Source of the DNA: Clostridia bacterium
GTDB lineage: Bacteria; Bacillota; Clostridia; Lachnospirales; Lachnospiraceae
NCBI GenBank assembly: GCA_910576205.1
Contig: CAJTHL010000010.1
Coordinates: forward strand, 72,900 to 136,899
Length of the DNA: 64,000 nucleotides
Direction: 5' to 3'
The translations under genes and the position numbers were made by a program. The notes below the pieces were generated by a model. It worked only from the letters and a program-made list of their open reading frames with translations. It was not told the origin of the DNA and did no database searches. This document shows positions 16,169 to 34,572 of the stretch, piece by piece. The stretch's first letter is position 1. Each line of letters opens with the position of its first letter.

Positions 16169-16924
16169 CTACACCGGCACCAGCTTACCGTGAAGCACAG
16201 ACCTGGCATTGTTAAACACATAGGCGCAGGTGGACAGCAGCACATAGCGCTCCCCCTCTCCAGGCTCCACATCCGCCTCAAAGTCGGATTTCGCCAGGGC
16301 ATTTCCGATATACTGGTCCAGCTCCTCCCCGGCTCCCTGGAAAATGGCGTAGGTATCCGACCCGGCCTTGGTGGTATAGCCGCTAAAAAGGACGATCTTG
16401 TAATTCTGTTCTGGCGTCAGCAGCCACATAAAGGGATGTTCCTCGTAAAACTGCTGATCCGCCCACTCCCCCAGAGGGGCGAACATGGTCTTGTTCAGCA
16501 TATGATGACCGTAGATAATGGTGTTGGAATCCGAAAAATCCGGCTGGTTTCCACAGTCTATAAAAATCGACCCGGAGGTGGTGTAGGTGCCGTCGTAGGC
16601 GTGCTTGAGATAATACTGGTTGTCGCTCCCCTGCACCACAGGGTAGTTGATAACCGTGCCCTCACAGTAAATCCAGCCGATCACATGTTCATTTTCCTGG
16701 CGCAGAGCATCAAAATCCACCTCAATGGGCGGAACCTCTACCGTCTCCTCCTTAATGTCCTCCTCATGCCTTGGGACATTGACGGCCGTAAACTGCTTCA
16801 TGGCCTGGCTGTAAAGCTGTTCGTCCGTATGATACTGATGCTGCGCGTAAAGAATCACGCCCACAGACCCCACAAACACCAGAAGAAGCAGCATTGTCAG
16901 CAGGCGCCTTATTTTCCGAAACAT
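16169..16924 (-). CDS. class B sortase
   Basis: 251 aa. N-terminal TM anchor; 'IYGHHM' and 'LLSTCAY' (TLxTC catalytic Cys) motifs. Confidence 0.8.
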   Translation of the reverse strand: MFRKIRRLLTMLLLLVFVGSVGVILYAQHQYHTDEQLYSQAMKQFTAVNVPRHEEDIKEETVEVPPIEVDFDALRQENEHVIGWIYCEGTVINYPVVQGSDNQYYLKHAYDGTYTTSGSIFIDCGNQPDFSDSNTIIYGHHMLNKTMFAPLGEWADQQFYEEHPFMWLLTPEQNYKIVLFSGYTTKAGSDTYAIFQGAGEELDQYIGNALAKSDFEADVEPGEGERYVLLSTCAYVFNNARSVLHGKLVPV

Positions 16925-16954
16925 AGTCTGTCCATTCCTTCCTGCATGATTATT

Positions 16955-17503
16955 CTATCCTTCTCTTCTGCGCTCCCGCATCCTTCCTGCCAGGATGTTA
17001 AACATCACCCCGCAGGCGGCAAAGCAGATCACATAAATCTTTCCCACGGAGCTGGTGTAAATCTCCAGAAACCGTCCAAAAAAAGGATAGTGGCGACTGA
17101 CCCTTCCAATCAGCGCGGAATAGTCCGCCTTTTCCATATCCTCCTCAGCGTTGGCGTCCCCCTTGGTGGTAAATTTTCCCTCCACCACCTGGTTTTCTAC
17201 CACCCGGTGGATAATGACAGAGTCGCCGCTTTGAAAGGCGATAACGTCGCCGCCGGCCACATCCTCGGCCCGCACGCCCTCCACATAGACTACGCTCCCC
17301 ACGGGAATCTCCGGCTCCATACTGCCGCTGACCACGTTGTAGATGCCGTAGCCCAGGAAGCGGGGCAGCGTAAGCGCCAGGCACAGGGCCAGTACGGCCA
17401 TTAGAATAAGGACTCCTAAAATATTGCAGAGCGAGGGAAGAAATCCCCCGCCCCCTTTTTTTCTCCGGGACAGCAAAGCATCATCCATGCCATTCATATA
17501 CAT
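16955..17503 (-). CDS. signal peptidase I, SipW (archaeal/ER-type)
   Basis: 182 aa. 'VVSGSMEPEIPVGSVVYV' catalytic Ser region, 'DVIAFQSGDSVIIHRVV'. Next to SipW-cognate substrates. Confidence 0.75.
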   Translation of the reverse strand: MYMNGMDDALLSRRKKGGGGFLPSLCNILGVLILMAVLALCLALTLPRFLGYGIYNVVSGSMEPEIPVGSVVYVEGVRAEDVAGGDVIAFQSGDSVIIHRVVENQVVEGKFTTKGDANAEEDMEKADYSALIGRVSRHYPFFGRFLEIYTSSVGKIYVICFAACGVMFNILAGRMRERRREG

Positions 17504-18533
17504 CTTCTTCTCTCTCCTCTTTGCGTCGGAAAAACAGGAAATAAGCCCCCAGGCTCACCAGCAGAATCACCAGGGAACATACGCCGAACCTGGCGGCCGT
17601 AGGCATGGCCATCATTCCCATCAGAACGGCAAAGTCTTTGGAATCCACGCTGGAACCCTCTGCCTCTTCGCCGCCTCCTGTATTTCCTGCCAGAGGTACA
17701 GACGGATTATCTATATCCACCAGATCAAAGGGTGTTGCGGGCAGGCTCTCTCCGCCGGGCTCCTCCCCGGCTTCCTCTTCCTCCCCCTGGTTTTCCTGGG
17801 CAGTATTTCCGCCGCCTCCGGCTCCGCCTGTGGCAGTATTCCCTCCGGTTGTTGTGGTGGTGGTATTTGTGGTGGTTGTCGTAGTCGTGGTGGTGGTAGT
17901 GCCGCCAGCCTCAGCCTCCACGCGGCTGTACACAAAGGTAAATACATTGTCCGCGGCATTTGCCTTTAAGGTTCCCGTCAGATTGTAGGCCTGGGGCTGA
18001 TACCCCTCAATATACAGGTGGGCGATTACCGGGCGGTCCCCCACGTTTCCGTAATACGTCTCGTCCGGGGCCAGCTCCTTTCCCGAGGAATCCTGGAATT
18101 TCACCGTGTAGGCCACAGACTCCCCCTTCATGCCGTAGGCAATAACATAATCCGCGTCCTCAGTCACCGTGAAAAAGGATTTTGCCACTTCCTCTGCCAC
18201 ATTATTGTCACGGCCGCTCTTGCGGATTCCCTTCACATAATATTTGCTGTCGTCGCTGACGGCAATACTGATATTGTGGGTCTCCCGGCTGCCTCCCCTG
18301 GAAATCGTCACCGTATTCTGGCGAAAGCTCACCGTGTCCCCATAAGACAAACCCTCCCAGGCCACCTGCCCCTCGTTATTGATGGAGCCCTGGGCCCCGG
18401 AAAGCAGGCGGATTTTGTAGGTATAGGCATCCTCCGCCCTGGCGGAAATGGGGAACATGCCCGCCAGGCAGACAAAAGCTGTCAGAAAAACAAGCCCTTT
18501 ACTGAATAAAGAATTTCTCTTCTTTCTCATCAC
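17481..18533 (-). CDS. cell-surface protein with Thr-rich linker and C-terminal TM/charged tail
   Basis: 350 aa. Signal peptide; poly-Thr (TTTTTTTTTTTNTTTTTT) plus Gly/Glu-rich low complexity; C-terminal hydrophobic segment + RRKEEREE tail. No canonical LPxTG. Confidence 0.6.
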   Translation of the reverse strand: MMRKKRNSLFSKGLVFLTAFVCLAGMFPISARAEDAYTYKIRLLSGAQGSINNEGQVAWEGLSYGDTVSFRQNTVTISRGGSRETHNISIAVSDDSKYYVKGIRKSGRDNNVAEEVAKSFFTVTEDADYVIAYGMKGESVAYTVKFQDSSGKELAPDETYYGNVGDRPVIAHLYIEGYQPQAYNLTGTLKANAADNVFTFVYSRVEAEAGGTTTTTTTTTTTNTTTTTTGGNTATGGAGGGGNTAQENQGEEEEAGEEPGGESLPATPFDLVDIDNPSVPLAGNTGGGEEAEGSSVDSKDFAVLMGMMAMPTAARFGVCSLVILLVSLGAYFLFFRRKEEREEDVYEWHG

Positions 18534-19291
18534 TTCGCCTCCTTCTTCTGCTTTTTCCGGTCTATGGCTCCGAAGAGGGCCAGAAACAGCAGCAGGGTTC
18601 CGCTGACGCAGGCCGCGCCGATAAAGGGCGTCAGATTAAAGTCATCCCCGGTACGCACGTCTGCGGTTACACGCCTTACCGCATGTTCGCTTACCGTGGC
18701 CGTCCGTGTACTAAGCTCCGTGGCAAACCGCATTTGCAGATCCGCCAGGGTGTTCTGGTAGTCGTTTCCGTTTGTCTCGCCGTCCAGGGCAATCTCCAGG
18801 GTAATCTTACTCTTCTCCCCTCCCGCCAGGGTATCCAGGAAAAAGAATTCCTCCAGGGCGTCCGTGGCCTCATGAAGGCCCTGTCCCGCCTGGCTTACGT
18901 CATCGCCGCCTACCGTCTCGCTGTCAAACAGAGTTTTAGGCACGCCGCTGGCATTGGTGTAGGTGAGAATATACGTGTATGCGCCGCCCCTGGTTCCCTT
19001 GTTGGGACTTCTGTCCTCCAGGGAATACAGGACTTTATTCAGCATATACCAGTCGGTAGCCTTCTTATTTTCATTTTTCAGATGAATCGTCAGAATAGCG
19101 TTGTCTCCGGGCTGCATTCCGTAAATCACGTCGTCCATGTCCGAAGTGGAAAAATTGCAGTCCATCTTGCTGTCCGCCGTAAAAACCACGCTCCAGTCGT
19201 CGCTTCCGTAGGAGGTCTCCGCCTGGGCCTTTATGGGAATAAAGACCAGCAAAAGCAACATAAGGAACAGGCCGTAACTCTTTTTTCTCAT
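18530..19291 (-). CDS. secreted protein with C-terminal membrane anchor (hypothetical surface protein)
   Basis: 253 aa. Signal peptide MRKKSYGLFLMLLLLVFIPIKAQA; C-terminal TM + KKQKKEAK tail preceded by 'VRTGDD'. Confidence 0.55.
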   Translation of the reverse strand: MRKKSYGLFLMLLLLVFIPIKAQAETSYGSDDWSVVFTADSKMDCNFSTSDMDDVIYGMQPGDNAILTIHLKNENKKATDWYMLNKVLYSLEDRSPNKGTRGGAYTYILTYTNASGVPKTLFDSETVGGDDVSQAGQGLHEATDALEEFFFLDTLAGGEKSKITLEIALDGETNGNDYQNTLADLQMRFATELSTRTATVSEHAVRRVTADVRTGDDFNLTPFIGAACVSGTLLLFLALFGAIDRKKQKKEAK

Positions 19292-19304
19292 GCTCCTCTC
19301 CCCC

Positions 19305-20102
19305 TTATCTCAGACTTAAGACGCCTTCGTTTACATCTACCCGCCGTCCCCAGGCGCTTAAGATAGCGTCCTTAGCGTTGTGCTCCTGGACAGCGTTCAC
19401 TTCAGCCTCCAGACAGAAGGTGACGCCATTGTAGTCGTAGGTGGTGGTAATCTTTGTACCGCCGTTTACCTTTTCCTCGGTCTGGGTCACCTTGGCCGCC
19501 ACCGCGTTGTCAATAGACAGGGTGTCGGAAAACAGCGGCGTTGCGGCTCCGGCCGCAAGCACCCGGTTATAATAGAGCACTGTGCGCTCCCTGGTGGAGG
19601 CCTCCTGGTCTAACAGCCAGTTCCCGCTGTTTACCAGATTCAGATTAATCCACTCCGGGGACATTTTCTGTGTCTTTTCCGTTTTCTGCCCGTTCTCATC
19701 CAACCAGTACCTGTAAATTATCACCCGGACATACTGTCCGATATCGCCGCTGTTCCGGACGCAGAGCTCCTCCTGGTAGGCCTTCCCCACCACAAGGTTT
19801 TCCGCCTTTTTCTCCTGGCTGTCCCCTTCTCCCAGCATATGTTCCAGCAGGACGCCCATGCCTTCGTCCCAACGTCCGTCCGCAGAGCTTCCGTAATTGC
19901 GCCATGATACGTCCCGGCCGTTCTCCACCAGGGTAACGCCGATGTTGCGGGTCTGCACCCGGGAACCATAAGTGTCCGAATAGTAGGTCAGAGCAGCCCG
20001 GGCTCCTCCCACCGAGGAGAATAAGAGCAGCGCCACAGCCAGCCCAAAAGCAGCCAGCGACACTTTGGGGGATGTGAGAAATTTCCTTATCTTACCCATC
20101 AC
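19305..20102 (-). CDS. SipW-cognate-class secreted protein (TasA/camelysin-like)
   Basis: 265 aa. N-terminal signal ending '...VGGARAALTYYSDT', resembling the GTxAYFSD SipW-cognate signal. Confidence 0.55.
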   Translation of the reverse strand: MMGKIRKFLTSPKVSLAAFGLAVALLLFSSVGGARAALTYYSDTYGSRVQTRNIGVTLVENGRDVSWRNYGSSADGRWDEGMGVLLEHMLGEGDSQEKKAENLVVGKAYQEELCVRNSGDIGQYVRVIIYRYWLDENGQKTEKTQKMSPEWINLNLVNSGNWLLDQEASTRERTVLYYNRVLAAGAATPLFSDTLSIDNAVAAKVTQTEEKVNGGTKITTTYDYNGVTFCLEAEVNAVQEHNAKDAILSAWGRRVDVNEGVLSLR

Positions 20103-20623
20103 GTATCGCCTCCTTTTTCCCCATCGAGGTTAAGCTTCAGTTCCCAGTCCGCATAGGGCTTTCCGTCCTTGTCATAGAGGACCGGGGTACACTCGTAAAT
20201 AACTATCACGTCAAAATTCTCCCCGTCCTCCAGAGGCTTTCCGTCCTCGCCTGTGGGCACTCCGTCGATCTTAACCAGCAGTTCCTCCGTGGCTTCCCCC
20301 GGGTATACCACATCGCTGTAATACCAGAAGCCGTCCCCGCCGTCAGACCATTTCCCGCCTGCATCCGAATACTTCAGCATATATTTGCTGTCGCAAAACG
20401 CCCTGGCGCGGACAAAAACCGCGCCCAGGTCTCCTGTATTCTCAATAGAAACATGTTTTGTCCAGGCGGAAAACTCCTCCTTCATCTCCGTCTTTTCCCC
20501 AAGCTTCAAGGGATAACCGCCCCTGGCCTGGGTGTAAGTGGTAAAATAAGCCCATGCGCCGTCCACAGCCGGAACCAGTAAGAGAACGAGGCAAAGCGCC
20601 AGCAGAAAAACATTTCTCTTCAT
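20099..20623 (-). CDS. SipW-cognate-class secreted protein (TasA/camelysin-like)
   Basis: 174 aa. Signal '...VPAVDGAWAYFTTYTQA'. Confidence 0.55.
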   Translation of the reverse strand: MKRNVFLLALCLVLLLVPAVDGAWAYFTTYTQARGGYPLKLGEKTEMKEEFSAWTKHVSIENTGDLGAVFVRARAFCDSKYMLKYSDAGGKWSDGGDGFWYYSDVVYPGEATEELLVKIDGVPTGEDGKPLEDGENFDVIVIYECTPVLYDKDGKPYADWELKLNLDGEKGGDT

Positions 20624-21776: not shown

Positions 21777-22685
21777 CTAGTCCTCCTTCTTTTTGCGGAT
21801 ATCATCCAGCAGTTCCTGCTCCGATTTTCTGGGGCCTTTCCTGCGGTAATAGATCAGCATTCCCAGCAGTAGCAGGAACATCAGCGGGATGCCCACTGCC
21901 GGAATAACAATGTAGGTAGGTATGCGGAAAGCCTCCGCGGTTATCACCACGGTTTCCGACTGGTTATCCGTCCTGCGTCCCCGCACCAGCATCCTGTGGG
22001 TATTGACGCCGTAAGGCGTACAGGTCACTAATGTGCAGTAATCCTTCCCCTCCACAATGGCCAGGTCTTTTGTCTCCTCTGGCAGCACTATGCGGATCTG
22101 GTCTACCATATAGGTAATGGTTTCATCCATAACCGTAACGGTGAAAATATCCCCCTCCCCGATCTGGTCCAGGTCTGTAAAGAGCTTTGCGCTTGGAAGC
22201 CCCCGGTGCCCGGACAGTACACAGTGGGTACGCTCCCCGCCCACAGGCAGGGACGAGCCGTTCACATGGCCTACCGCGACCTGTAGTACGGATTCCTCCG
22301 TGCCGTGGTAAACCGGAAGATTTACATTGATGGCGGGAATCTGCACATACCCCATGATGCCTGTGCCCGACACATCCAGAAGGCTCTCATACAAGGCCTG
22401 CTCCGCGTCAGTCAGGGTAAAATGCACGCCGTTTGGCATGGAAGCATTGTATTCCCTGGCCGCCTCCAGGATGGCATCCTTATCCTCCTGGGACATCTCC
22501 TCCACCGCCTCCACATAGTTGGCAATGGCCTGGGTGGCATGCATGGAATTCCACCAGTCGCTGACCGTAGGGTACGCCATAATCCCCACGCCGGCCAGCA
22601 GGATAAGCACTAATAAAAACGTCGTGAGGGAAAACCCTTTCTTTTTCCCGGCCGGCTGTTGCTGTTGTTGTTTTTTCTTTTTCAT
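21777..22685 (-). CDS. class C (pilus-assembly) sortase
   Basis: 302 aa. N-terminal TM, 'CVLSGHRG', 'TLVTCTPYG' catalytic motif, C-terminal TM anchor. Confidence 0.85.
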   Translation of the reverse strand: MKKKKQQQQQPAGKKKGFSLTTFLLVLILLAGVGIMAYPTVSDWWNSMHATQAIANYVEAVEEMSQEDKDAILEAAREYNASMPNGVHFTLTDAEQALYESLLDVSGTGIMGYVQIPAINVNLPVYHGTEESVLQVAVGHVNGSSLPVGGERTHCVLSGHRGLPSAKLFTDLDQIGEGDIFTVTVMDETITYMVDQIRIVLPEETKDLAIVEGKDYCTLVTCTPYGVNTHRMLVRGRRTDNQSETVVITAEAFRIPTYIVIPAVGIPLMFLLLLGMLIYYRRKGPRKSEQELLDDIRKKKED

Positions 22686-22840: not shown

Positions 22841-24457
22841 TTACTCTCTGCTCATGCGTTTTCTGGTTACCAGGAGTACAAGGGCTCCAAGCGCCAGAAC
22901 GCCGCCGATGATGTAGAAGAGCGTGGTACCGATTCCACCGGTGGAGGGAAGCTGGGTACCAGAGTGGTTGACAATGGTAATCTCGGATACATTGAAGGGG
23001 AATTCATAGGTCTGTGACGATTCTGCCTCTTCTTCCTTCACAATATTGCCGTCCTTGTCATAGTAAACGGTATAGGTTTTCTTGTAAGAGGTTGCGCCTG
23101 TTCTCTGGGCTTCCACAGTCTTGGGATCTGTCAGCATATTGTAGCCGTCCGGAGCCTTAAGCTCTGTAATCTCATAAACGCCTTCCCGGACGCCCTTGAT
23201 TATGATCTGGCCCTTGGCCGCGCCTTCCGTGCCTGTCACAAACTCTTTTACTGCGCCTGGTACATTCTCATCCTTTGCATGCTCGTATACTCCGGGCTGT
23301 CCTTCCACTGGTACGGCCCACAGATCTGTTCCATCCGGATTCTTGATGCCAAAGGTTGCTCCTGCCAGAGGATTTCCCTTCTCATCGGTTTTCTGAATAC
23401 CAAGAGCGTAGGTGTAGGTAATTGTCTCCTCCTCCCTCTCATCCTCATGGGGTTCTCCGTCCTCAGTTATATACTCAAATTTTGCCTTATTCTTGTTGCC
23501 GTCACTGCCATCTCCGGCAATCTCGGCATCCTTATTGATGGTTGTGGTATAAGTTACCGTAATCAGAGAGTTGGCGTCATACAACAGATTCTTGTCGTCT
23601 GCATTGTCCACCCAGGGAATCGTAAGTTTAAAGGCATGATCTGTAGCCGCATCCCATTCAACCGTATATTCCCCTGCCGCAGCGTCCAGAGTTTTATCCC
23701 CTACGGTCACAACCAGGGAATCCTTGTTGTAATCCAGACCCGGGTCAATGGTATCGTTGATGGTATACTCTATAATCTTCTTGTCGTCCAGGTAATTGGT
23801 GGCCTTCACAGAAATCTGGAATTTCACCTCATCCCCAAATGCGCCGTCGCTTATAATTTTGCCGTCTGCATCGGGAAGCATGGGCGTTCCATCCTCGCCA
23901 ATGATTGTCTTGCCCTCATCCGGCCAGCTGGGCTTCTGGTTTTTGTCAATAACGGAGGCCTTGGGCGTAGTGCTGGTAACAGTAATTACGCCGCCTGTCT
24001 CTTTTACATTGCTGGATACATAGTAATAGCCATACTCCAGGCCTTTAAATACAAGGGTCTGCTCTGTAGCTGTTGCCTCTGTCACTTTTGTTCCGTTTGC
24101 TTCAATCCATCCAATCGCGCCTTCAGACAGCTGCTCTGTACTGCCCTCTTTGAAAGCGTCAGGCAGAGCAGAAATATTCCCTTTGGCATCTTTGGCAAAA
24201 AACTCATTATCTGTCCATGTTTTGCCCTCGGGCCAGGTGTAGGCGATTCTCACATCATCCGGATTCTCGTCATTTACCGTTGCGTCAAACACCTTGTAGA
24301 GGGTATAAATGGCATCCTTAGTGGCATTGGTCACGGTAATCTCCGCGGGGCCGCTTCCCCCCTCAGCACCCGGCTCTGCAGCAGATACCGTCACCGTCAT
24401 GGCCAGAACCATAACCGCTGCCAGCATTAAGCTGACAAGTTTCTTCATATGTTTCAT
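22841..24457 (-). CDS. LPXTG-anchored major pilin (isopeptide-forming), E-box present
   Basis: 538 aa. Signal peptide; E-box 'YEITELKAPDGY'; C-terminal LPSTGG + TM + RKRMSRE. Confidence 0.8.
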   Translation of the reverse strand: MKHMKKLVSLMLAAVMVLAMTVTVSAAEPGAEGGSGPAEITVTNATKDAIYTLYKVFDATVNDENPDDVRIAYTWPEGKTWTDNEFFAKDAKGNISALPDAFKEGSTEQLSEGAIGWIEANGTKVTEATATEQTLVFKGLEYGYYYVSSNVKETGGVITVTSTTPKASVIDKNQKPSWPDEGKTIIGEDGTPMLPDADGKIISDGAFGDEVKFQISVKATNYLDDKKIIEYTINDTIDPGLDYNKDSLVVTVGDKTLDAAAGEYTVEWDAATDHAFKLTIPWVDNADDKNLLYDANSLITVTYTTTINKDAEIAGDGSDGNKNKAKFEYITEDGEPHEDEREEETITYTYALGIQKTDEKGNPLAGATFGIKNPDGTDLWAVPVEGQPGVYEHAKDENVPGAVKEFVTGTEGAAKGQIIIKGVREGVYEITELKAPDGYNMLTDPKTVEAQRTGATSYKKTYTVYYDKDGNIVKEEEAESSQTYEFPFNVSEITIVNHSGTQLPSTGGIGTTLFYIIGGVLALGALVLLVTRKRMSRE

Positions 24458-24573: not shown

Positions 24574-27500
24574 TCACCTGCCCATTCCCCCCTTTCTGCG
24601 TCTTACTTGTCTATACCCAAGCAGCGCCGCCGCAATCACAATCTGCAGCAGGGCCGCTATGCGTATCCCTTTTGTACCGGTACCGCCTGTCTCCGGAAGG
24701 GCGTAGCCTACCACCACATTCTGGTAACTCACCACATCGTCTCTTCCCCAGTCAATACTGCCCTCGGCCGTTGTACCGCTTTCAATAATATTGCTGCCAG
24801 AGATATCCGGCTTATAGCTCCCGTATTCCTTCTCCCTGATGCTAAAGGAAGCCCCGTCCGGAAGATTTTTTACCTCGATGGTCTGACCGTTTTTCAGGTA
24901 GAAGGTACCCCCATGTCTGATGGTTCCGGAAAAGTCAATGGTTCCGTCACTCCCCAGAATCATGTAGTCATAGTCGTTCTTTAAGATGTTTCCGGCCATG
25001 TCCTTAAGCTCTATTGCAAACTCAAAGGCCTCGTCTGTCTCCACAACCTCCCCGGTCACGGCCTTTCTTATGGTCAGCGTCTTTTTAAATCCCCCCACAG
25101 GCTCCTCAACCGGCTGGGAAGCCGCACATGGCAGAGTAAACTGCATCCAGCAGGTAGAACCGGAGGCGCCCCGCTCATTGTAGAAGAAGCGGAGGGTATG
25201 CTTTCCGGAATCTCCCTTTTTAATATAGTCCCACAGATCCACGTACTCCCCTACGGATGAGTGGACGCCTCCGATATCGCACACAAGCTTATCGTCCAGG
25301 TATACCCACATATCGTCATCACCGAAGAAATAATAGTTTAAGGGGCCCACATAATCCTCTGTCAGCTCAAATCCCACAGAGAAGTTCATGCTGAAATAGC
25401 TGTTGTGATCCTTCTCATCATCACTGACAGAAAAAGCTTCTGATCCGCCCTTGCTTCCGTGTGCAATCCGATTATCTTTTTTGGATGCATCTCCAAACTT
25501 CAGATCATGCCCATCAGTGCCCCAGGTGCTGGCAGAATCCATGGGCCAGAACTGATTGGACCAGATTTTTTTCCAGCCCCCGGGAGCCCAGGACACAGCC
25601 TTATCAAACACCAGCTGAAATTTATCCAGCCCTGTGACAGAGCTTCCGTTAACCGCCTTCAGCGTGTAGGTGTCCCCGCTTTTATCAAAATCAAGGGAAT
25701 ATCCGGGAACCCCTGTCTTACCTGTCTGTTCCTTATTGCTAAACAGATCCGGAGCCGCCACATTAAATACGGGATAGTCATTGCTTCCCAGAGTGTTGCT
25801 CACAATCCCAAAGGCGCATCCCCCTGTATTGGACGAATTATTCTTGTTTATAAAGGAATTGTTATACATTTCCTCCTGCAGTCCGGTACCGTTAACGTTG
25901 GCATTACCAAAGCCAAGCCTGGGGCCGGACTGCCCTTCAAAGTTCAACTTGTTGTTGATTCCCTGTCTGTTGGTATACCCATGCAGAACCCCCGTGGAAT
26001 TCCGGTCGCCAATCTTCCAGCCATTCGGATATGTATCCGTATAGTCGGAGTAAACCTGGCCGTCAGTAATATCAAAATCATAGAAGGCCACACTGTTATT
26101 GTGAGTGGTCTGCCTTGGCTTTCCTACCAGCCGCAGTACCGTGCCCTCCTTGATCACGATGCAGTTGGGATCATCCTCATATTGGGAGCTGTTTGTAAGC
26201 TCCAGATTTTCCATATCATCATAGATGATCCAGTCTCCGGGCTCCAGGCTTTTCTCGTCACTGCCATCTCTCAGTACCCAGATTTCTTCCACATCATAGT
26301 TGCTGACCCTTGTCTGGCCCTCGTCCTCATTATTTCTTTCATTGTCAAACTTATTAAAATTCTTAAGCTCGGGATATGTAGAAAAGTCATAGCCTTCCTC
26401 TTTATAAATCTCCTCCAGAGACTCTTTAAAGATAACGCTTCCCGTCTTTCCCTCCGCCTTCAGAAAAAGGCTTGCGGTATTCGTGGCCACGCCGTTTCTG
26501 GGCAGATTTCCGCCTGTGCCGTCCCCGTTTCCACTGGTGTCAATTAGGAGAAGCTCTGCGTCCGAGCTGGCCGGCGCCTGGTCCGGCACCTGGATACTGG
26601 CAAAAAACTGCACCTTGAAATGCACATTGGCGATTCCGTTGGCGCTCACACCCACAGTTGTGCTGTCCAGCGCCACATCCAGCGTCTCCTCCTGGACATT
26701 TTCCTCGCTGAGCAGCATATTATCAAGCTGGGCCGCCTGATTATCCTCCTGCAGCGTAAACACCCGGACACGGATTTCATTCTGCTCTTCCTCATTTTCG
26801 GAAAGTTCTTCAGCCTGCTGGATCAAAGACTCGGCCGGAGCGATTTCCGCCGTTATCTGACAGTTATTCAAAGGAATTTCCTGTCCCTCATGGGTTAAAG
26901 ACAGTGTCATGCCCCGAAGCGCAAGCGGAATACTGCCTTCCTCTGTCTCCAGCTCCTGGGCACACTCCGAAATAGCCACAAACTCCCGGGAGCTTTCATC
27001 CAGCTGGGCTACCTCAAGGAGAAACGCAGAATCCCCGCTGGCAGGCACCTGACAAACGCCGGCTGCCGGCGCCTGGTTATTTGTGTCTGTTTCCTGAGCT
27101 GTGCCGGCATTCTCTTCCGGCTCCTGGATCTGGGATCCGGCTGCCTCTTCCCCCTCTGCCAAAACGTCGGCTTTGGTCCGGTCTCCCGTCTCCGGCGATA
27201 CGCCTGCGTCCGAGGCTGCTCCAGTATCCGCCATGACGCCGGCTTTTGGGACGCTTTCCTCTTCCATGGCCTCGGTTCCCGGGTTTATGGCATCCGGTTC
27301 TTCCCCGGCTTCTCCCGCAGCCTCACCGGCCTCTTCCCCGTTTTCTCCTGCTTCCGGCGACACGCTGCCTGCGTCTGACATGGTATTTTCCTGTCCGGCG
27401 CCCTCCGCCGTTCCTGTGCCGGGGCTGTTTTCCGCCGCCAGCCTTGCTTTTCCTTCTATATGAAAGGTAATATGAAATTCTTCGTCGGCATAGGCAAAGG

Positions 27501-28818
27501 ATTCGGAGATCTCCACCATTTTCCCCATGCCTCTGCGCCCTATGGCGATCTCAGAGAAGCTATCCATCTCAAAGGTGGTGCTGTTGTCCTCCGCGTCGCT
27601 TCCGTCCAGCACTTCCGTACCCTTTTCGGCAAAATGCACTACCGTAATGGGCTCCCCGTCTGCCAGGCCGTTCTCGTCCAGGAACTGCACCGTAACCGTT
27701 ACCGCAGACCTGGGCTCAATCTCCTCCCCATCCACGTAGAAGCCGATATGGAAGAGGGCGCTCATGGTGACCTCCTCGTCACCCAGGGTTTCCTGGAATT
27801 CCTCTTCCCGCTGGGCATAATGCCCGGGATCCTCATCCGGGGTAATCAACCTGGCCACAAACTCTGCATCCTCCGGGATATTGGCGTTTGCGCCGTAGGA
27901 AGCGGTAACCACATAGCCGTTCCCCTCAAAAGTCTTTTCCCCTCCCGATGTCTGGCTGTTTTTATTTAAAATCTCGATTTCTTCATTTGTCAGCTCCATT
28001 ATTTTGAAGCATCCTTCCCCGTGGATATGCTCCTCCAGCTGCACACGACCACAGATCAGATTGCCTTCCTGGTCAAAGCATGCCTCCTCATGGGTATGAA
28101 GCTCCGGTTCGTCGCAGGCAGGCACCAGGTCGATTCCGTAGCATTCCTCCGTATGGGCATGACCACCCTCGCCCTCCTGTACGGTACATACAAGGCCTTC
28201 CGTCCATGCATAGCAGTTATCATCATGCGTATGCTCTTCCATACCGCAGTTTAAAATTCCGCTTTCCAGGGCATAGCATTCCTCTGTGTGTGCATGCTCT
28301 TCCGACTCCTCCACATCGCACACCAGAACCTGCTGCTGGCTGTAACAGTCATCTCCATGTGTATGCTCTTCCAGAGTGCAGGTCAGCGCATCCTTTGTCA
28401 TGGCATAGCATGCCATATCGTGCTGATGCCCGGCTGACTCCTCCACACCGCAGACCAGCGTCTCCAGCTCCTGGTAACACTCCTCTGTATGCTCATGGGG
28501 CTCTGTTTCCGGAAGCGGACAGACCAGTTCTCCATTTGTATCATAGCAGTCATCATTATGTATGTGGAGCAGGTAATCCGTATAACCACAGATCAGATTC
28601 CCTTCGTCGTCATAGCATTCCTCTCTGTGTTCATGTACCTCCGCACTGCATTCCAGCGTTTTTACCTGGTGGGTCATTGCCTGGCCATACATTCTGAGGG
28701 CAGCCACCGTCACCAGAACCACCAGAACGGCCGAACACAGAAACATAATCATCCACCGCTTATTCTGCTTCTTTTCACGCAGAAATTTTGCCGCCTGTGA
28801 AAAAAACGAAGCTTCCAT
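24574..28818 (-). CDS. LPXTG-anchored giant adhesin (putative pilus tip) with Cys/His repeats, PA14/fibro-slime-like domain and C-terminal Cna-B/SpaA-like domains
   Basis: Start chosen at MEASFFSQAAKFL (RBS AAGGAAGGGG), 1414 aa. About 10 tandem ~21-aa repeats C-x3-6-EEHxHxxxCY. Acidic G/E/A low-complexity region. 'GDDDMWVYLDDKLVCDIGG' PA14-like. C-terminal LPETGG + TM + RRRK. Confidence 0.8.
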   Translation of the reverse strand: MEASFFSQAAKFLREKKQNKRWMIMFLCSAVLVVLVTVAALRMYGQAMTHQVKTLECSAEVHEHREECYDDEGNLICGYTDYLLHIHNDDCYDTNGELVCPLPETEPHEHTEECYQELETLVCGVEESAGHQHDMACYAMTKDALTCTLEEHTHGDDCYSQQQVLVCDVEESEEHAHTEECYALESGILNCGMEEHTHDDNCYAWTEGLVCTVQEGEGGHAHTEECYGIDLVPACDEPELHTHEEACFDQEGNLICGRVQLEEHIHGEGCFKIMELTNEEIEILNKNSQTSGGEKTFEGNGYVVTASYGANANIPEDAEFVARLITPDEDPGHYAQREEEFQETLGDEEVTMSALFHIGFYVDGEEIEPRSAVTVTVQFLDENGLADGEPITVVHFAEKGTEVLDGSDAEDNSTTFEMDSFSEIAIGRRGMGKMVEISESFAYADEEFHITFHIEGKARLAAENSPGTGTAEGAGQENTMSDAGSVSPEAGENGEEAGEAAGEAGEEPDAINPGTEAMEEESVPKAGVMADTGAASDAGVSPETGDRTKADVLAEGEEAAGSQIQEPEENAGTAQETDTNNQAPAAGVCQVPASGDSAFLLEVAQLDESSREFVAISECAQELETEEGSIPLALRGMTLSLTHEGQEIPLNNCQITAEIAPAESLIQQAEELSENEEEQNEIRVRVFTLQEDNQAAQLDNMLLSEENVQEETLDVALDSTTVGVSANGIANVHFKVQFFASIQVPDQAPASSDAELLLIDTSGNGDGTGGNLPRNGVATNTASLFLKAEGKTGSVIFKESLEEIYKEEGYDFSTYPELKNFNKFDNERNNEDEGQTRVSNYDVEEIWVLRDGSDEKSLEPGDWIIYDDMENLELTNSSQYEDDPNCIVIKEGTVLRLVGKPRQTTHNNSVAFYDFDITDGQVYSDYTDTYPNGWKIGDRNSTGVLHGYTNRQGINNKLNFEGQSGPRLGFGNANVNGTGLQEEMYNNSFINKNNSSNTGGCAFGIVSNTLGSNDYPVFNVAAPDLFSNKEQTGKTGVPGYSLDFDKSGDTYTLKAVNGSSVTGLDKFQLVFDKAVSWAPGGWKKIWSNQFWPMDSASTWGTDGHDLKFGDASKKDNRIAHGSKGGSEAFSVSDDEKDHNSYFSMNFSVGFELTEDYVGPLNYYFFGDDDMWVYLDDKLVCDIGGVHSSVGEYVDLWDYIKKGDSGKHTLRFFYNERGASGSTCWMQFTLPCAASQPVEEPVGGFKKTLTIRKAVTGEVVETDEAFEFAIELKDMAGNILKNDYDYMILGSDGTIDFSGTIRHGGTFYLKNGQTIEVKNLPDGASFSIREKEYGSYKPDISGSNIIESGTTAEGSIDWGRDDVVSYQNVVVGYALPETGGTGTKGIRIAALLQIVIAAALLGYRQVRRRKGGMGR

Positions 28819-28850: not shown

Positions 28851-29522
28851 TTACCTGTTTACCATTCCCATTTCCGAAAACGGCCACACCCGGAACAGCA
28901 CTCTTCCTATAACCATGTCGTTTCCCACGCAGCCCACGGCTGTGTTCCGGCTGTCTATGCTGGTAGCCCGATGATCCCCCATCACAAAGCACTTGTTGTC
29001 CGGCACCTGGTATGGCAGCTGTATGTTGCAGTCCCCCAGGGCCTTATCCGTGACGTAAGGCTCATCCAGCAGTTGATTATTCACGTACACATTACCTTCT
29101 TTATCGATATCTACCCAATCACCGGCGGAGGCGATCACCCGCTTTACCAGAATATTATTGTTATAATAAAATGCAATAATATCGCCGGTGGAATACTGGG
29201 AACTCTTGATTCCCACCACAATGTCTTTGTCCCTAAGGGAGTCCGACATGGAAGTTCCGCTGATCTGAAGTACCGGAAGCAGCAAAACGGCAATCAGAAC
29301 AGCTGCCGCAGCTACCACCATCAAAGAGAATACGGTGCTTTTTAAAACCCTGCTATAGCTGTTTTTATACTGCTCTCTCTTAAGCTCCTCTTCCAGGAGT
29401 TCAAGACTTGGAAAATCCAGCTTTACAGGCTCCTGCTCCGGCGGGTCCGAGGTCCCGGGAATCTCTTGCATAGGCAGCTGTATCTGTCCAAACTCCCTAG
29501 ATTTTTTTACGCCTACATACAT
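28851..29522 (-). CDS. signal peptidase I (LepB/SipS type)
   Basis: 223 aa. 'ISGTSMSDSL', 'VKRVIASAGD', 'GDHRATSIDSR' boxes B-E. Confidence 0.85.
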   Translation of the reverse strand: MYVGVKKSREFGQIQLPMQEIPGTSDPPEQEPVKLDFPSLELLEEELKREQYKNSYSRVLKSTVFSLMVVAAAAVLIAVLLLPVLQISGTSMSDSLRDKDIVVGIKSSQYSTGDIIAFYYNNNILVKRVIASAGDWVDIDKEGNVYVNNQLLDEPYVTDKALGDCNIQLPYQVPDNKCFVMGDHRATSIDSRNTAVGCVGNDMVIGRVLFRVWPFSEMGMVNR

Positions 29523-31366: not shown

Positions 31367-32635
31367 TTATATTACCGGCGTCCCGCACTCGCTGCAAAAG
31401 CGCACCCCCAGCTCCAGCTTTGCGCCACAGCCTTTGCAGTTCTCCTGGGCCGGCGCCGGGTTCACGGGCGAACCGCAGTTGTTGCAAAACTTTGCTCCCA
31501 CCGGGTTTTCCGCCCCGCAGACGGGACATTCAGGCTTCTCCTGTTCCAGCTTTCCCCCGCAGTTATTGCAGAATTTCGAGCCCTTCTTATTGGGACTTTT
31601 GCAGGCAGGACATTTTATCTCCTCTGCCAAAGGAGCCCCCTGGCTCTTTTCTGACGGGGAGGGCTGGGCCTGCCGGGAGGCGGCCGGGGCCGCGCCTGCC
31701 ATACCGCCCTCCATGGGGACGAACATCTGCTGGGCCATGGTTCCAAACACGCTTCCGGCCGCCATACCTATGCCAAAGCCCGCTCCGGCCGCAGCCGTTC
31801 CGCCGGCTCCCGGATTCCGTGCCACATCCCGCAGGATATCTGCGGAGGTTCTCTGGGCCCAGCTGATCCCGTAAATCTGGTCTGCCCGGTGCTGGGCGTA
31901 AGCCTCCTCCAGACGGATACGGCCCGGGTCATTCTCCGGAATATCCAGGGCGGCTATGGAAAAGTCCACCAGGCGGATCCCGTATTCGTCAAAGGCCTCC
32001 CCCATTTGCCGGGCAATCTCCTCCGCCAGCATATCCTGCTGGGAACAGATGCCCAGAATTTCCTCGTTGGAATTTTTTATATATCCGGCAATCAGGCTTT
32101 TGATATGCTGGGAAAACCGGCTGCGGAAATATGCGGTCATGTCCTCTTTTGTCATATACGCCTTGCTGTTTCCCACCATTTTCAAGAGGAATTTTTTAGA
32201 ATTCTGCACCTGCACCCGGTAAGCGCCCCTGGCCATAACGCTGGTAGCAATCCCCTGAATGGGATCCCGCACCTGGATGGGGGAATCCGTGCCCCAGAGC
32301 ACCTCCATGGAATGCACCTTGTTTACAAAATACACCTTGCAGTTGAAGGTGCTGATACCTCCTGTCAAGGCATTGCGCAGACGGCTTATAAAAGGATAAT
32401 TGCTGGTATCCAGCTTGTATTTTCCGCCAGTAAACACCTGCTCGATAACGCCATCCTTGAAAAACAGCGCCTCCTCCGACTCCGCCACAATCAGCGTAGA
32501 GTTGTTGTTGAAATCCTCTTCTCCGTTAAGCCAGATCAGGGTATCCACAGGGGAAGTATTTTTGATGACGTCGGCAAAATGCTTTTTCCCGCCCACATAA
32601 TTCACTTCATTTTCATTTTTTGCAAATAATCCCAT
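31367..32635 (-). CDS. SPFH/band-7 domain protein (YdjI-like) with three C-terminal zinc ribbons
   Basis: 422 aa. N-terminal SPFH-like domain; C-terminal 'CPACKSPNKKGSKFCNNCG', 'CPVCGAENPVGAKFCNNCG', 'CKGCGAKLELGVRFCSECG'. Confidence 0.6.
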   Translation of the reverse strand: MGLFAKNENEVNYVGGKKHFADVIKNTSPVDTLIWLNGEEDFNNNSTLIVAESEEALFFKDGVIEQVFTGGKYKLDTSNYPFISRLRNALTGGISTFNCKVYFVNKVHSMEVLWGTDSPIQVRDPIQGIATSVMARGAYRVQVQNSKKFLLKMVGNSKAYMTKEDMTAYFRSRFSQHIKSLIAGYIKNSNEEILGICSQQDMLAEEIARQMGEAFDEYGIRLVDFSIAALDIPENDPGRIRLEEAYAQHRADQIYGISWAQRTSADILRDVARNPGAGGTAAAGAGFGIGMAAGSVFGTMAQQMFVPMEGGMAGAAPAASRQAQPSPSEKSQGAPLAEEIKCPACKSPNKKGSKFCNNCGGKLEQEKPECPVCGAENPVGAKFCNNCGSPVNPAPAQENCKGCGAKLELGVRFCSECGTPVI

Positions 32636-32789: not shown

Positions 32790-33788
32790 CTATGCATTTT
32801 TCTTGTCGCGGATCAGATTGCGCATAGCCGTAAACCGGTCAGCCAGGACAGACTCGTTCTCCCCGCTGGCTCCCAGGCTGGCGCAGAAACTACAGCCTCC
32901 CATGTAAAGTACAAAGCTCTCCCTCTTCTGATTGACATATACTTTCTTTTTGCGGTTAAACACCTTGTACAGGGATTCTCTAAAGTTCATGGCCTCAACC
33001 TCCTGGTAGAAGCACTCGCTTGTCTCTTCCCGGTAAATAAGGCCCGTGGAAATATCCACGTCCGCCACATACATGAGAATCTGGGTATCGGTAAACACAA
33101 AGGTGGAAACCTCCATCAGCATAGAACGGATCCTGTCGTCCGAGCCGATCTTGTAAACCTCCTCCGGATCGTACTCCGTTCCGTCCGCCTTCTTAAACAG
33201 CGCCGAAATCCACCCAAATAAACTGAATCTGCGCCCTCTTCTTGCCTGGGATTCCGCCCTGGCATTGGAAAAGCTGTCATCCGGGGACGCGCCGAAGCCG
33301 ATCAGGGTCACCGGGTCGATAATGCTGGTCTGCTCCTGGATAAGGTTGAGCTTTTCCATACTCCTGGCCTCCAGACGGTCCGCCTGTTTTCTCCATGCCT
33401 GGTCCACGCTGGACTCGCCAGCATAGCTCTCCTTCATCAGCAAGATGATGCCAACGATAATGAGAATCAGGCCAAGACCCATCATACAGATAAAGGGTAT
33501 GCCCACAATAATCAGAACCCAGGGCAGTACCCGGTTGCTTAGGAAATATTTCCGCACTGTCTTCACGTCCACATCCCCATAGCCGCCCTGTCCCCCCGAC
33601 GTATAACCGCCCCCGGAGGGGCAACCTCCCGGCGTATAGCCGCCTGGTGTTCCCGGGGCGTAGCTTCCCGGCGTATAACTGCCAGCCCCATAGACGCTCT
33701 GCTCTGCCGGCGCCTCCACCGGACTTCCGCACACGTTGCAGAATTTCGCGTCGTTTTCCAGCGGCGCGCCACACTTTGTACAATTCAT
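32790..33788 (-). CDS. zinc-ribbon membrane protein (YdjG-like)
   Basis: 332 aa. N-terminal 'CTKCGAPLENDAKFCNVCG'; G/Y/P-rich linker; TM; C-terminal domain. Confidence 0.5.
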   Translation of the reverse strand: MNCTKCGAPLENDAKFCNVCGSPVEAPAEQSVYGAGSYTPGSYAPGTPGGYTPGGCPSGGGYTSGGQGGYGDVDVKTVRKYFLSNRVLPWVLIIVGIPFICMMGLGLILIIVGIILLMKESYAGESSVDQAWRKQADRLEARSMEKLNLIQEQTSIIDPVTLIGFGASPDDSFSNARAESQARRGRRFSLFGWISALFKKADGTEYDPEEVYKIGSDDRIRSMLMEVSTFVFTDTQILMYVADVDISTGLIYREETSECFYQEVEAMNFRESLYKVFNRKKKVYVNQKRESFVLYMGGCSFCASLGASGENESVLADRFTAMRNLIRDKKNA

Positions 33789-33872: not shown

Positions 33873-34466
33873 TTACAAGCAATCCGGTTTGGGCGTTCCC
33901 AGAATTCCATATAGCTGTTCCACGTCATAGACCGACAGGCCTGCCTGCACCGCCCCATTAAGAAGCTCCCGGTAATCCGGTGTGGTATTCAGCCGCTTGC
34001 AAAAATAATAGTCGTACTTTACATAGGAAAGGAAATAATAGAAAATTCCCCTGGGCTCTATCAAAAGCGCGGCATTGATGTACTCCTCAATCTTTTCTAT
34101 CACCGGCTTCACCGTCATAAAGGGCCGCTTCCCCTTAAGGAGGCAGACCGCCCCATAGAAAAAGGTTTCCGGGTTATCAAACTCCTGCTCTGCCGCCTTC
34201 TCAAAAGCTTCCTGGGCCTTGTCATAGAGACGAAGCTTAAGGTAGCACATGGCAACGGAGCGATTCAGTTCTGCGTTTTCCGGGTTTTCCGCCAGAGCCT
34301 GCCGGTAAGCGCCTGCATAGCGATTGATCTCCGGCATGGGCATGGTATAGACACTGTTAAATGTAGAGATAATGACCGGCCTGCCACAGTAACGGCACAC
34401 GGTTTCCCCGGCGCCAGACGGCGCGCCGCAGCCCGGGCATTTTAAATCAAGGATCTGATGGGCCAT
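33873..34466 (-). CDS. zinc-ribbon plus TPR-like protein
   Basis: Start at MAHQILDLKCPGCGAP (RBS GAGGGGGAAG); CxxC...CxxC then helical repeats. Confidence 0.5.
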   Translation of the reverse strand: MAHQILDLKCPGCGAPSGAGETVCRYCGRPVIISTFNSVYTMPMPEINRYAGAYRQALAENPENAELNRSVAMCYLKLRLYDKAQEAFEKAAEQEFDNPETFFYGAVCLLKGKRPFMTVKPVIEKIEEYINAALLIEPRGIFYYFLSYVKYDYYFCKRLNTTPDYRELLNGAVQAGLSVYDVEQLYGILGTPKPDCL

Positions 34467-34572
34467 AAATGACTTCCCCCTCATTTATGTATGGATGCAG
34501 TTTCGGCAAGATGTTAAAAAAAATAACTTCTTCTGGAATATTATAGTGCAAAATGTCCATTTCTGTCAAGTT

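Follow-up and report, generated by a model that had tools for sequence, protein, structure and literature searches.

Ten tandem Cys/His units at the N-terminus of a giant pilus tip-type adhesin, encoded on the minus strand of a 64,000-nucleotide stretch of Clostridia bacterium DNA (Lachnospiraceae; contig CAJTHL010000010.1, positions 72,900 to 136,899; hereafter the window), may best be read as an array of metal-stapled Cys2His2 mini-domains that forms a semi-rigid acidic rod with a mainly architectural role. We hold this reading with moderate confidence. The repeat itself is undescribed, as no name, structure or paper for it exists in the sources searched, and as judged by sequence the array belongs to a family, very large and unnamed, of modules found at the N-terminus of secreted or wall-anchored proteins of gut and rumen Clostridia. 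After export, the two Cys and two His of each unit would bind one divalent metal ion, most plausibly Zn(II), and this cross-link would fold a very acidic chain with few hydrophobic residues. Eight-residue beta-hairpins, running from the last Cys of one unit to the first Cys of the next, would couple adjoining sites, the array thereby acting as a semi-rigid, negatively charged rod. This rod would be the mature N-terminus and the outermost tip of a sortase-assembled pilus adhesin, and would serve primarily as an extension or spacer, not for the recognition of one specific ligand.

A protein-level repeat of ten units

A regular-expression scan of the adhesin found exactly ten units of the form C-x(4-8)-H-x-H-x3-C-[YF] between amino acids (aa) 57 and 271, with the first HxH core at aa 62. 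Together they account for 20 of its 29 Cys and 20 of its 36 His. Composition-preserving shuffling of the 245-aa region (20,000 shuffles) gave a mean of 0.0018 units and never more than one, and the pattern HxHxxxC[YFW], sought in all six frames of the window, occurred at these ten sites only, all in one frame. Units are 20-24 residues long and all ten stand in register in a MAFFT self-alignment. Spacing is most rigid within H-x-H-x3-C, between which and the next Cys lie 8-9 residues, and the region is strongly acidic (60 D/E versus 6 K/R, pI 4.2). The original prediction, made from the letters alone, of about ten periodic copies between 28000 and 28680 in acidic surroundings is therefore confirmed in number, place, periodicity and charge. 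Its motif C-x3-6-EEHxHxxxCY has to be amended: the HxH-x3-C core stands, but the loop from the first Cys (Cys1) to the first His has 4, 5, 7 or 8 residues, the EE is a consensus and not invariant, and units 9 and 10 end in CF instead of CY.

Identity from unit to unit amounts to 39% for protein and 53% for DNA, and Tandem Repeats Finder (TRF) found no DNA tandem repeat matching the array period, so the repeat exists at the protein level only. Taken together, this indicates old, diverged duplications and not a slippage-prone tract. A DNA-level repeat or slippage locus was rejected on the TRF result, the DNA identity and the copy number, which is fixed at ten among strain variants. Every strain-level variant that includes the N-terminus (90% cluster) has ten units, and none of the 13 variable positions in the first 300 residues is a ligand. 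A comparison of copy number among strains, as had been proposed, thus shows no variation within the species, and it is between species that complete orthologues differ, carrying 7-25 units. At the start of the array most loci keep the loops 4,7,7, at its end several keep 8,5,7, and the part between contains runs of like units. Among the orthologues L011, L013 and L015, some have runs of at least eight short units of equal length (loops 4,4,4,4...) and others have runs of 6,6,6,6. These runs indicate that, in individual lineages, one type of unit has multiplied inside the array while the end units were conserved, and the loop pattern is that of an array with capping units and evolvable length.

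Conserved ligands and the predicted fold

The array has 95 clear homologues (E down to 3e-54), in which the Cys1-to-His loop is mostly 4 or 7 residues long (569 units). In homologue alignments, nearly all invariant columns and columns conserved to at least 90% are Cys or His, the exceptions being one Leu and two Glu columns. Outside this tetrad, the Tyr/Phe after the second Cys (Cys2) and an L-[VI] before Cys1 are well conserved, together with an acidic preference before HxH. With about three hydrophobic residues per unit there is almost no hydrophobic core. Without such a core, mini-domains of about 20 residues fold only with the help of a metal or a disulfide, and two Cys with two His are the classic tetrahedral ligand set of Zn(II).

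Which residues belong to one site was read from the borders of the arrays. Inside the arrays of 245 family proteins, both flanking Cys are present at 2,950 of 3,239 HxH anchors, and many of the others simply have longer loops. In 212 of 239 proteins the Cys that opens the array stands four residues ahead of the first HxH, and 249 of 369 array ends fall at Cys-[YF] with no Cys in the following 12 residues. This boundary pattern points to a self-contained unit of Cys, His-x-His and Cys with exactly two Cys and two His. Very few units lack a ligand, and co-loss of ligands gave an odds ratio of 1.8 within the same unit (p = 0.08) and of 1.0 for pairs across a hairpin. In AlphaFold2 (AF2) models of the whole array, the linking hairpins CYDDEGNLIC and CYDTNGELVC are confident, with a block pLDDT (predicted local distance difference test) of 80-92, and a one-turn helix is placed on the residues leading into Cys2. 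A helical turn is a usual geometry for an H-x3-C ligand pair. The fixed length of the modelled hairpins suggests that neighbouring sites would be mechanically coupled. A further helix is predicted behind the array (construct residues 233-243, block pLDDT 91), and an ELTxEE[IV]xxLN-like stretch follows the array in the homologues P0001 and P0025 as well.

A large family without a name

Searched alone against Pfam-A 2025, the repeat region gave no family at E<=10. The whole adhesin, searched against Pfam and NCBIfam 20.0 at E<=1, gave matches only at aa 1138-1407 and one chance-level match in the leader. No Pfam model covers the arrays of the 45-unit relative P0098, and among ten family members checked none has a model covering the repeat. 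PDB sequences yielded no match by repeat sequence or profile, PDB folds no match to the repeat, and full-text literature searched by motif strings, motif notation and topic contained nothing on the Cys/His repeat. The earlier statement that no named domain could be recognised therefore holds across these sources. Its claim of novelty needs qualification, as the repeat is undescribed but not peculiar to the adhesin gene: a 4-unit repeat profile searched against 1.84 billion representative proteins (clusters at 50% identity) finds at least 4,336 protein clusters at E<=1e-3, 1,446 of them at E<=1e-30.

The top 150 members span 437-6,101 aa and 8-45 cores, with the first core at a median of residue 59, and 106 of them end in LPxTG. 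Throughout the family the array lies outside the cytoplasm and at the N-terminus: all 242 Met-starting members examined have the first unit inside the first 120 aa, and 228 have a hydrophobic leader (medians: a basic n-region of 22 aa, an uncharged hydrophobic segment of 24 aa, and the first HxH 10 aa later). The leader type is conserved family-wide, with VVFCTTYALILPAITME in other members or, as in the adhesin, the type L[KR]MYGQAMTH or LK[ML]YGQAMTH; among the N-termini of P0096-P0245, leaders end in YALILPAITME or L[KR]MYGQAMTH. The adhesin follows this family pattern of a leader and then tandem units starting within about 60 aa of the N-terminus, and its own leader is probably a signal peptide or signal anchor. 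A twin-arginine motif is inconsistent, with RR in 110 of 228 leaders and RRx-hydrophobic-hydrophobic in 35; given this low count and the long hydrophobic segments, Tat export of a metal-loaded protein was considered unsupported.

Partner domains are diverse and include DUF7601/SpaA/Cna_B with LPXTG, Big_2 arrays, DUF4874/DUF4832 and CHAP peptidoglycan hydrolases, the last in P0016, P0039, P0078, P0089, P0228 and P0098. The gene of P0016 (L022 8001-9278) is chromosomal and adjoins one for a LysM protein; a 420-aa Redoxin/AhpC-TSA protein is encoded nearby (L022 4191-5453). An origin from mobile elements was rejected because of this chromosomal location, the lack of any plasmid match and a single weak phage-metagenome match.

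Weighing a structural role against its rivals

Putative metal binding appears better supported than disulfide stapling, since conservation of the two His equals that of the Cys and the host organisms are anaerobes of the gut. Thiolate ligands outside the cell are stable only under anoxic conditions. An architectural role is probable, as the length varies between species while the end units stay conserved, and variable length, promiscuous partners and poorly conserved surfaces argue for architecture over specific recognition. The label of a stalk, which the original prediction had attached to the repeat, fits poorly: in an LPXTG-anchored tip pilin no part lies farther from the cell than the N-terminus, which would make the array a distal extension and not a wall-proximal stalk.

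Several points weigh against the metal-stapled rod. Support for metal binding by the units is indirect (an invariant tetrad, a complete set of four ligands per unit and the lack of a hydrophobic core), neither the sequence nor the fold of the repeat matches any solved zinc site, and sequence cannot separate Zn from Ni, Co, Cu or Fe. The loop inside the proposed site is variable and the x8 stretch between units is fixed, which would also fit a site made of H-x-H-x3-C and the next Cys. Modelling of the array, suggested at the outset, gave the confident hairpins described above but poor models overall (mean pLDDT 48.7 and 58.6, predicted template modelling score 0.24-0.25). Finally, spacer rods are not usually located at the distal N-terminus of an LPXTG protein, and in CHAP members the array is the sole non-catalytic module, hinting at binding or targeting.

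The distal tip position and the role as sole accessory module in CHAP enzymes keep alive the main rival, doubtful as we judge it, in which the array is a multivalent binding surface, that is, the adhesive part of the pilus tip and the targeting domain of the CHAP enzymes, with metal sites perhaps as a scaffold only. A repetitive polymer (glycan, wall polymer or mucin) or cationic partners were proposed as targets. The extreme distal end of a tip-type pilin is the usual place of binding domains, in P0016 and P0039 the array occupies the usual wall-binding slot next to the catalytic domain, and every unit has a conserved aromatic residue. However, beyond the ligands and two or three hydrophobic positions the surface is poorly conserved, and complete orthologues range in unit number from 7 to 25. 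In addition, so strong a net negative charge makes anionic wall polymers or mucins unfavourable partners, and the proteins already have other candidate binding domains, fibro-slime/PA14 among them.

Metal capture, in which the array would scavenge, buffer or hand over surface zinc or nickel as a sponge of ten or more sites, is less likely. Ten potential sites per chain on a surface-exposed protein would suit such a sponge, and His-based motifs offer precedents, among them the HxxHxH motif of streptococcal Pht proteins. Another is provided by ZnuE/F/G of Corynebacterium diphtheriae, wall proteins with an HxD/HxH Zn motif, of which ZnuG is sortase-anchored (PMC12445094). The neighbour genes examined, however, concern pilus assembly or matrix, with neither a metal transporter nor a Zur-type context among them. 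Sites of the Cys2His2 kind are as a rule structural, binding tightly and exchanging slowly, and a module joined to many unrelated adhesins and enzymes is more readily seen as a structural part than as a dedicated metal-uptake protein.

Less likely again are disulfide-stapled repeats without metal, a rather remote case in which the Cys pair of a unit or the Cys flanking a hairpin would be bonded and the His would serve another role. The number of Cys (20) is even and their spacing fixed, and Cys at both ends of an eight-residue hairpin could come close to each other. Such stapling leaves the two equally invariant His unexplained, bonding across hairpins would strand the first and last Cys of nearly every array, and the related genomes are all from gut or rumen Clostridia, whose reducing habitats disfavour extracellular disulfides.

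Least probable are redox or oxygen-sensitive centres, be it an electron path of Fe-S (Rieske-like) or copper sites or a Zn-thiolate switch whose oxidation would unfold or cross-link the pilus tip near oxygenated mucosa. In their favour, two Cys and two His are also the ligands of Rieske [2Fe-2S] and CuA centres, there is a site every ~20 residues, and the hosts are anaerobes. The spacing, however, is unlike known Rieske, CuA or blue-copper motifs with no such family matched, the proteins reach 6,101 aa, and long Sec-type leaders without a consistent twin-arginine motif make export of a pre-assembled cofactor unlikely.

Returning to the metal-stapled rod, an extension of it that we regard as speculative and improbable is that the arrays form an unrecognised extracellular zinc-finger-like class restricted to strict anaerobes, in which cooperative, metal-dependent folding would tune the stiffness, length or exposure of pilus tips and wall hydrolases to zinc availability or oxidation. 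The restriction would follow from the survival of Zn-thiolate sites outside the cell only without oxygen. If this were true, gut Clostridia would have a built-in sensor of the mucosal oxygen and zinc gradient. Sortase-anchored giant proteins are the main contact of gut and rumen Clostridia with their surroundings, and almost none of their domains are characterised. Should the units bind zinc, they would represent a rare Cys-containing zinc site at work outside a bacterium and, with it, a novel element from which rod-like surface proteins are built, and HxHxxxC[YF] every 20-24 residues after a leader would be a marker with which thousands of 'hypothetical' proteins could be annotated.

The adhesin gene and its surroundings

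An identical sequence of the 1414-aa product is present in a public protein collection, and the gene was also found on an independent Logan contig with the same neighbours. Besides the array, the acidic G/E/A tract, fibro-slime/PA14-like domain, CnaB-like C-terminal domain and LPETG signal described earlier are all present in the same protein (Table 1). The PA14 profile match is weak (E 0.027, under the cutoff), as is that of TIGR01167 to the sorting signal (13.1 bits versus a cutoff of 15.9), although this signal is canonical in its motif, its hydrophobic segment and its RRRK tail. In its C-terminal region the adhesin is similar to S. pyogenes pilus ancillary protein 1 (PDB 2xi9, E 2.6e-4), and the NCBIfam equivalog of the latter, NF033396 (pilus_ancill_1), gives a partial match to the C-terminal ~140 residues, the CnaB-like part (38.7 bits versus a cutoff of 600). 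As a full-length match is lacking, the adhesin is by this profile not an orthologue of ancillary protein 1. With a C-terminal LPXTG signal, and a major pilin and class C sortase encoded directly downstream, the whole protein would behave as a sortase-assembled pilus tip adhesin, its place at the tip being suggested by gene order and domain layout. Two plus-strand open reading frames antisense to the array, 28080..28697 (205 aa) and 28489..28800 (103 aa), both His/Pro/Arg-rich, were treated as spurious, because the minus frame has homologues (E 3e-54), an exact database match and in-frame domains; they are probably artefacts of the repeat codon pattern.

Table 1. Positions in the window of the adhesin gene, its parts and the neighbouring secretion and pilus genes.
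Feature	Position	Strand	Basis
Signal peptidase I gene, 32 nt upstream of the adhesin gene	28851..29522	minus	Peptidase_S26 E 5e-30, TIGR02227 E 3.6e-33
Giant LPETG-anchored pilus tip-type adhesin gene, 1414 aa from MEASFF	24574..28818	minus	open reading frame and translation
N-terminal leader, aa 1-45: 21-aa basic n-region, ~20-aa hydrophobic segment, then RMYGQA	28684..28818	minus	sequence
Cys/His repeat array, aa 57-271, ten units	28006..28650	minus	regular expression, shuffle test, self-alignment, homologue alignments
Repeat units 1-5	28650-28612, 28590-28543, 28521-28474, 28452-28405, 28380-28342	minus	regular expression
Repeat units 6-10	28320-28273, 28248-28210, 28188-28138, 28116-28075, 28053-28006	minus	regular expression
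Short predicted helix after the array, aa 278-288, NEEIEILNKNS, kept in the orthologue group	27955..27987	minus	AF2 model
Acidic G/E/A/S/T/P low-complexity tract, aa ~454-600	27019..27459	minus	composition scan
Fibro-slime/PA14-like domain, aa 1138-1228	25135..25407	minus	TIGR02148 Fibro_Slime E 7.5e-17, 61.6 bits, cutoff 45
CnaB-like DUF7601 domain, aa 1247-1351	24766..25080	minus	PF24547 E 3e-18, 66.9 bits, cutoff 27
LPETG sorting signal (aa 1374-1378), hydrophobic segment, basic tail and stop codon	24574..24699	minus	sequence
Major pilin, 538 aa, LPSTG	22841..24457	minus	NF033902 SpaH/EbpB, 98.9 bits, cutoff 95; also SpaA, GramPos_pilinBB, Gram_pos_anchor
Class C pilus-polymerising sortase	21777..22685	minus	NF033745 E 2.3e-82, 276 bits, cutoff 160
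BsaA-like SipW-dependent protein, weak match (second block)	20099..20623	minus	
SipW-type signal peptidase (second block)	16955..17503	minus	
Class B sortase (second block)	16169..16924	minus	

On the minus strand the order is signal peptidase I, adhesin, major pilin, class C sortase, a DUF5979 protein and a second block. The adhesin had been placed first in the pilus operon, which is correct for the structural genes, but the signal peptidase gene precedes it. This peptidase keeps the catalytic-type motifs SGTSM, KRVIA and GDHRATSIDSR. Related loci, 20 in number, come from Lachnospiraceae (including Acetatifactor), Oscillospiraceae, Ruminococcaceae and unclassified Clostridia, with all genomes from mouse, rabbit, rumen or human gut. 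They keep the synteny of signal peptidase, repeat-bearing adhesin, pilin and class C sortase, and in 15 of them the signal peptidase lies upstream of the repeat-bearing gene. Its conservation suggests a dedicated peptidase for the unusual leader. In a consensus scan, giving pattern matches only, the best promoter-like site fell at 30620-30592, and a strong hairpin resembling a terminator at 16122-16091.

The second block (16169-20623), for secretion and assembly, also encodes two small secreted proteins without a family match, and it seems that one operon-like cluster contains both a sortase pilus and a TasA/BsaA-like fibre system. A 350-aa secreted protein (17481-18533, minus strand) has a long poly-Thr/Gly tract (TTTTTTTTTTTNTTTTTTGGNTATGG...), a C-terminal hydrophobic segment and no family match. 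Upstream of the pilus genes, three genes on the same strand (31367-32635, 32790-33788 and 33873-34484) encode classical CxxC zinc-ribbon motifs unrelated to the repeat; one of the products is a Band_7/SPFH protein with double zinc ribbons.

Comparison with known systems

At the level of the locus, a close parallel is S. pyogenes Cpa (2xi9, NF033396), likewise a large LPXTG protein beside a major pilin and class C sortase and with a CnaB-like C-terminal domain. S. pyogenes pilus islands also carry a signal-peptidase-family gene, SipA/LepA; in distinction from it, the signal peptidase described here keeps catalytic-type motifs. The tips differ as well, being built from thioester domains in Cpa and, in the adhesin, from the Cys/His array followed by domains without assignment and the fibro-slime/PA14-like domain.

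As short tandem repeats with beta-hairpins that form elongated rods of variable copy number on Gram-positive surface proteins, the G5-E repeats of Aap/SasG and the 20-residue choline-binding repeats (PF01473) are also comparable, and Aap/SasG uses Zn. There, however, Zn is bound near the wall between two chains via His/Asp/Glu, whereas the adhesin array has four ligands per unit and is N-terminal. Choline-binding repeats rely on aromatic residues and no metal, and neither system matches the array in sequence. Pht proteins and C. diphtheriae ZnuE/F/G are Gram-positive surface or wall proteins with repeated short His motifs and (proposed) Zn binding. Their motifs consist of His/Asp without Cys, in 1-6 copies within larger domains, and belong to zinc-regulated uptake loci. 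Members of the repeat family, in contrast, carry as many as 45 compact Cys2His2 units, occur in the context of a pilus, hydrolase or adhesin, and have no sequence similarity to them; the adhesin motif is HxH-x3-C, and no Pfam match places it in the Pht family.

Eukaryotic-type zinc-finger and zinc-knuckle arrays (C2H2, PF00096; CHHC, PF05253) consist, like the adhesin array, of tandem mini-domains of ~20-30 residues with two Cys, two His and little hydrophobic content. A further common trait is a His/Cys ligand pair with x3 spacing on a helical turn. The CHHC finger of U11-48K/TRM13 even has the same ligand order, C-H-H-C, but PF05253 gave no profile match at E<=10 and the two His of the adhesin units are one residue apart. 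Classical C2H2 fingers follow C-x2-4-C-x12-H-x3-5-H with a beta-beta-alpha fold and a ~12-residue helix, a fold not found in the adhesin units, which read C-x4-8-H-x-H-x3-C and have no Pfam match. To our knowledge, this spacing with its adjacent H-x-H is that of no described finger. The adhesin units are joined by hairpins and not by flexible linkers, no fold match was obtained, and nucleic-acid binding is excluded for the array by its extracytoplasmic location and strongly acidic character. Although it thus departs from these proteins in spacing, profile and fold, the array would work most like a zinc-finger or zinc-knuckle array.

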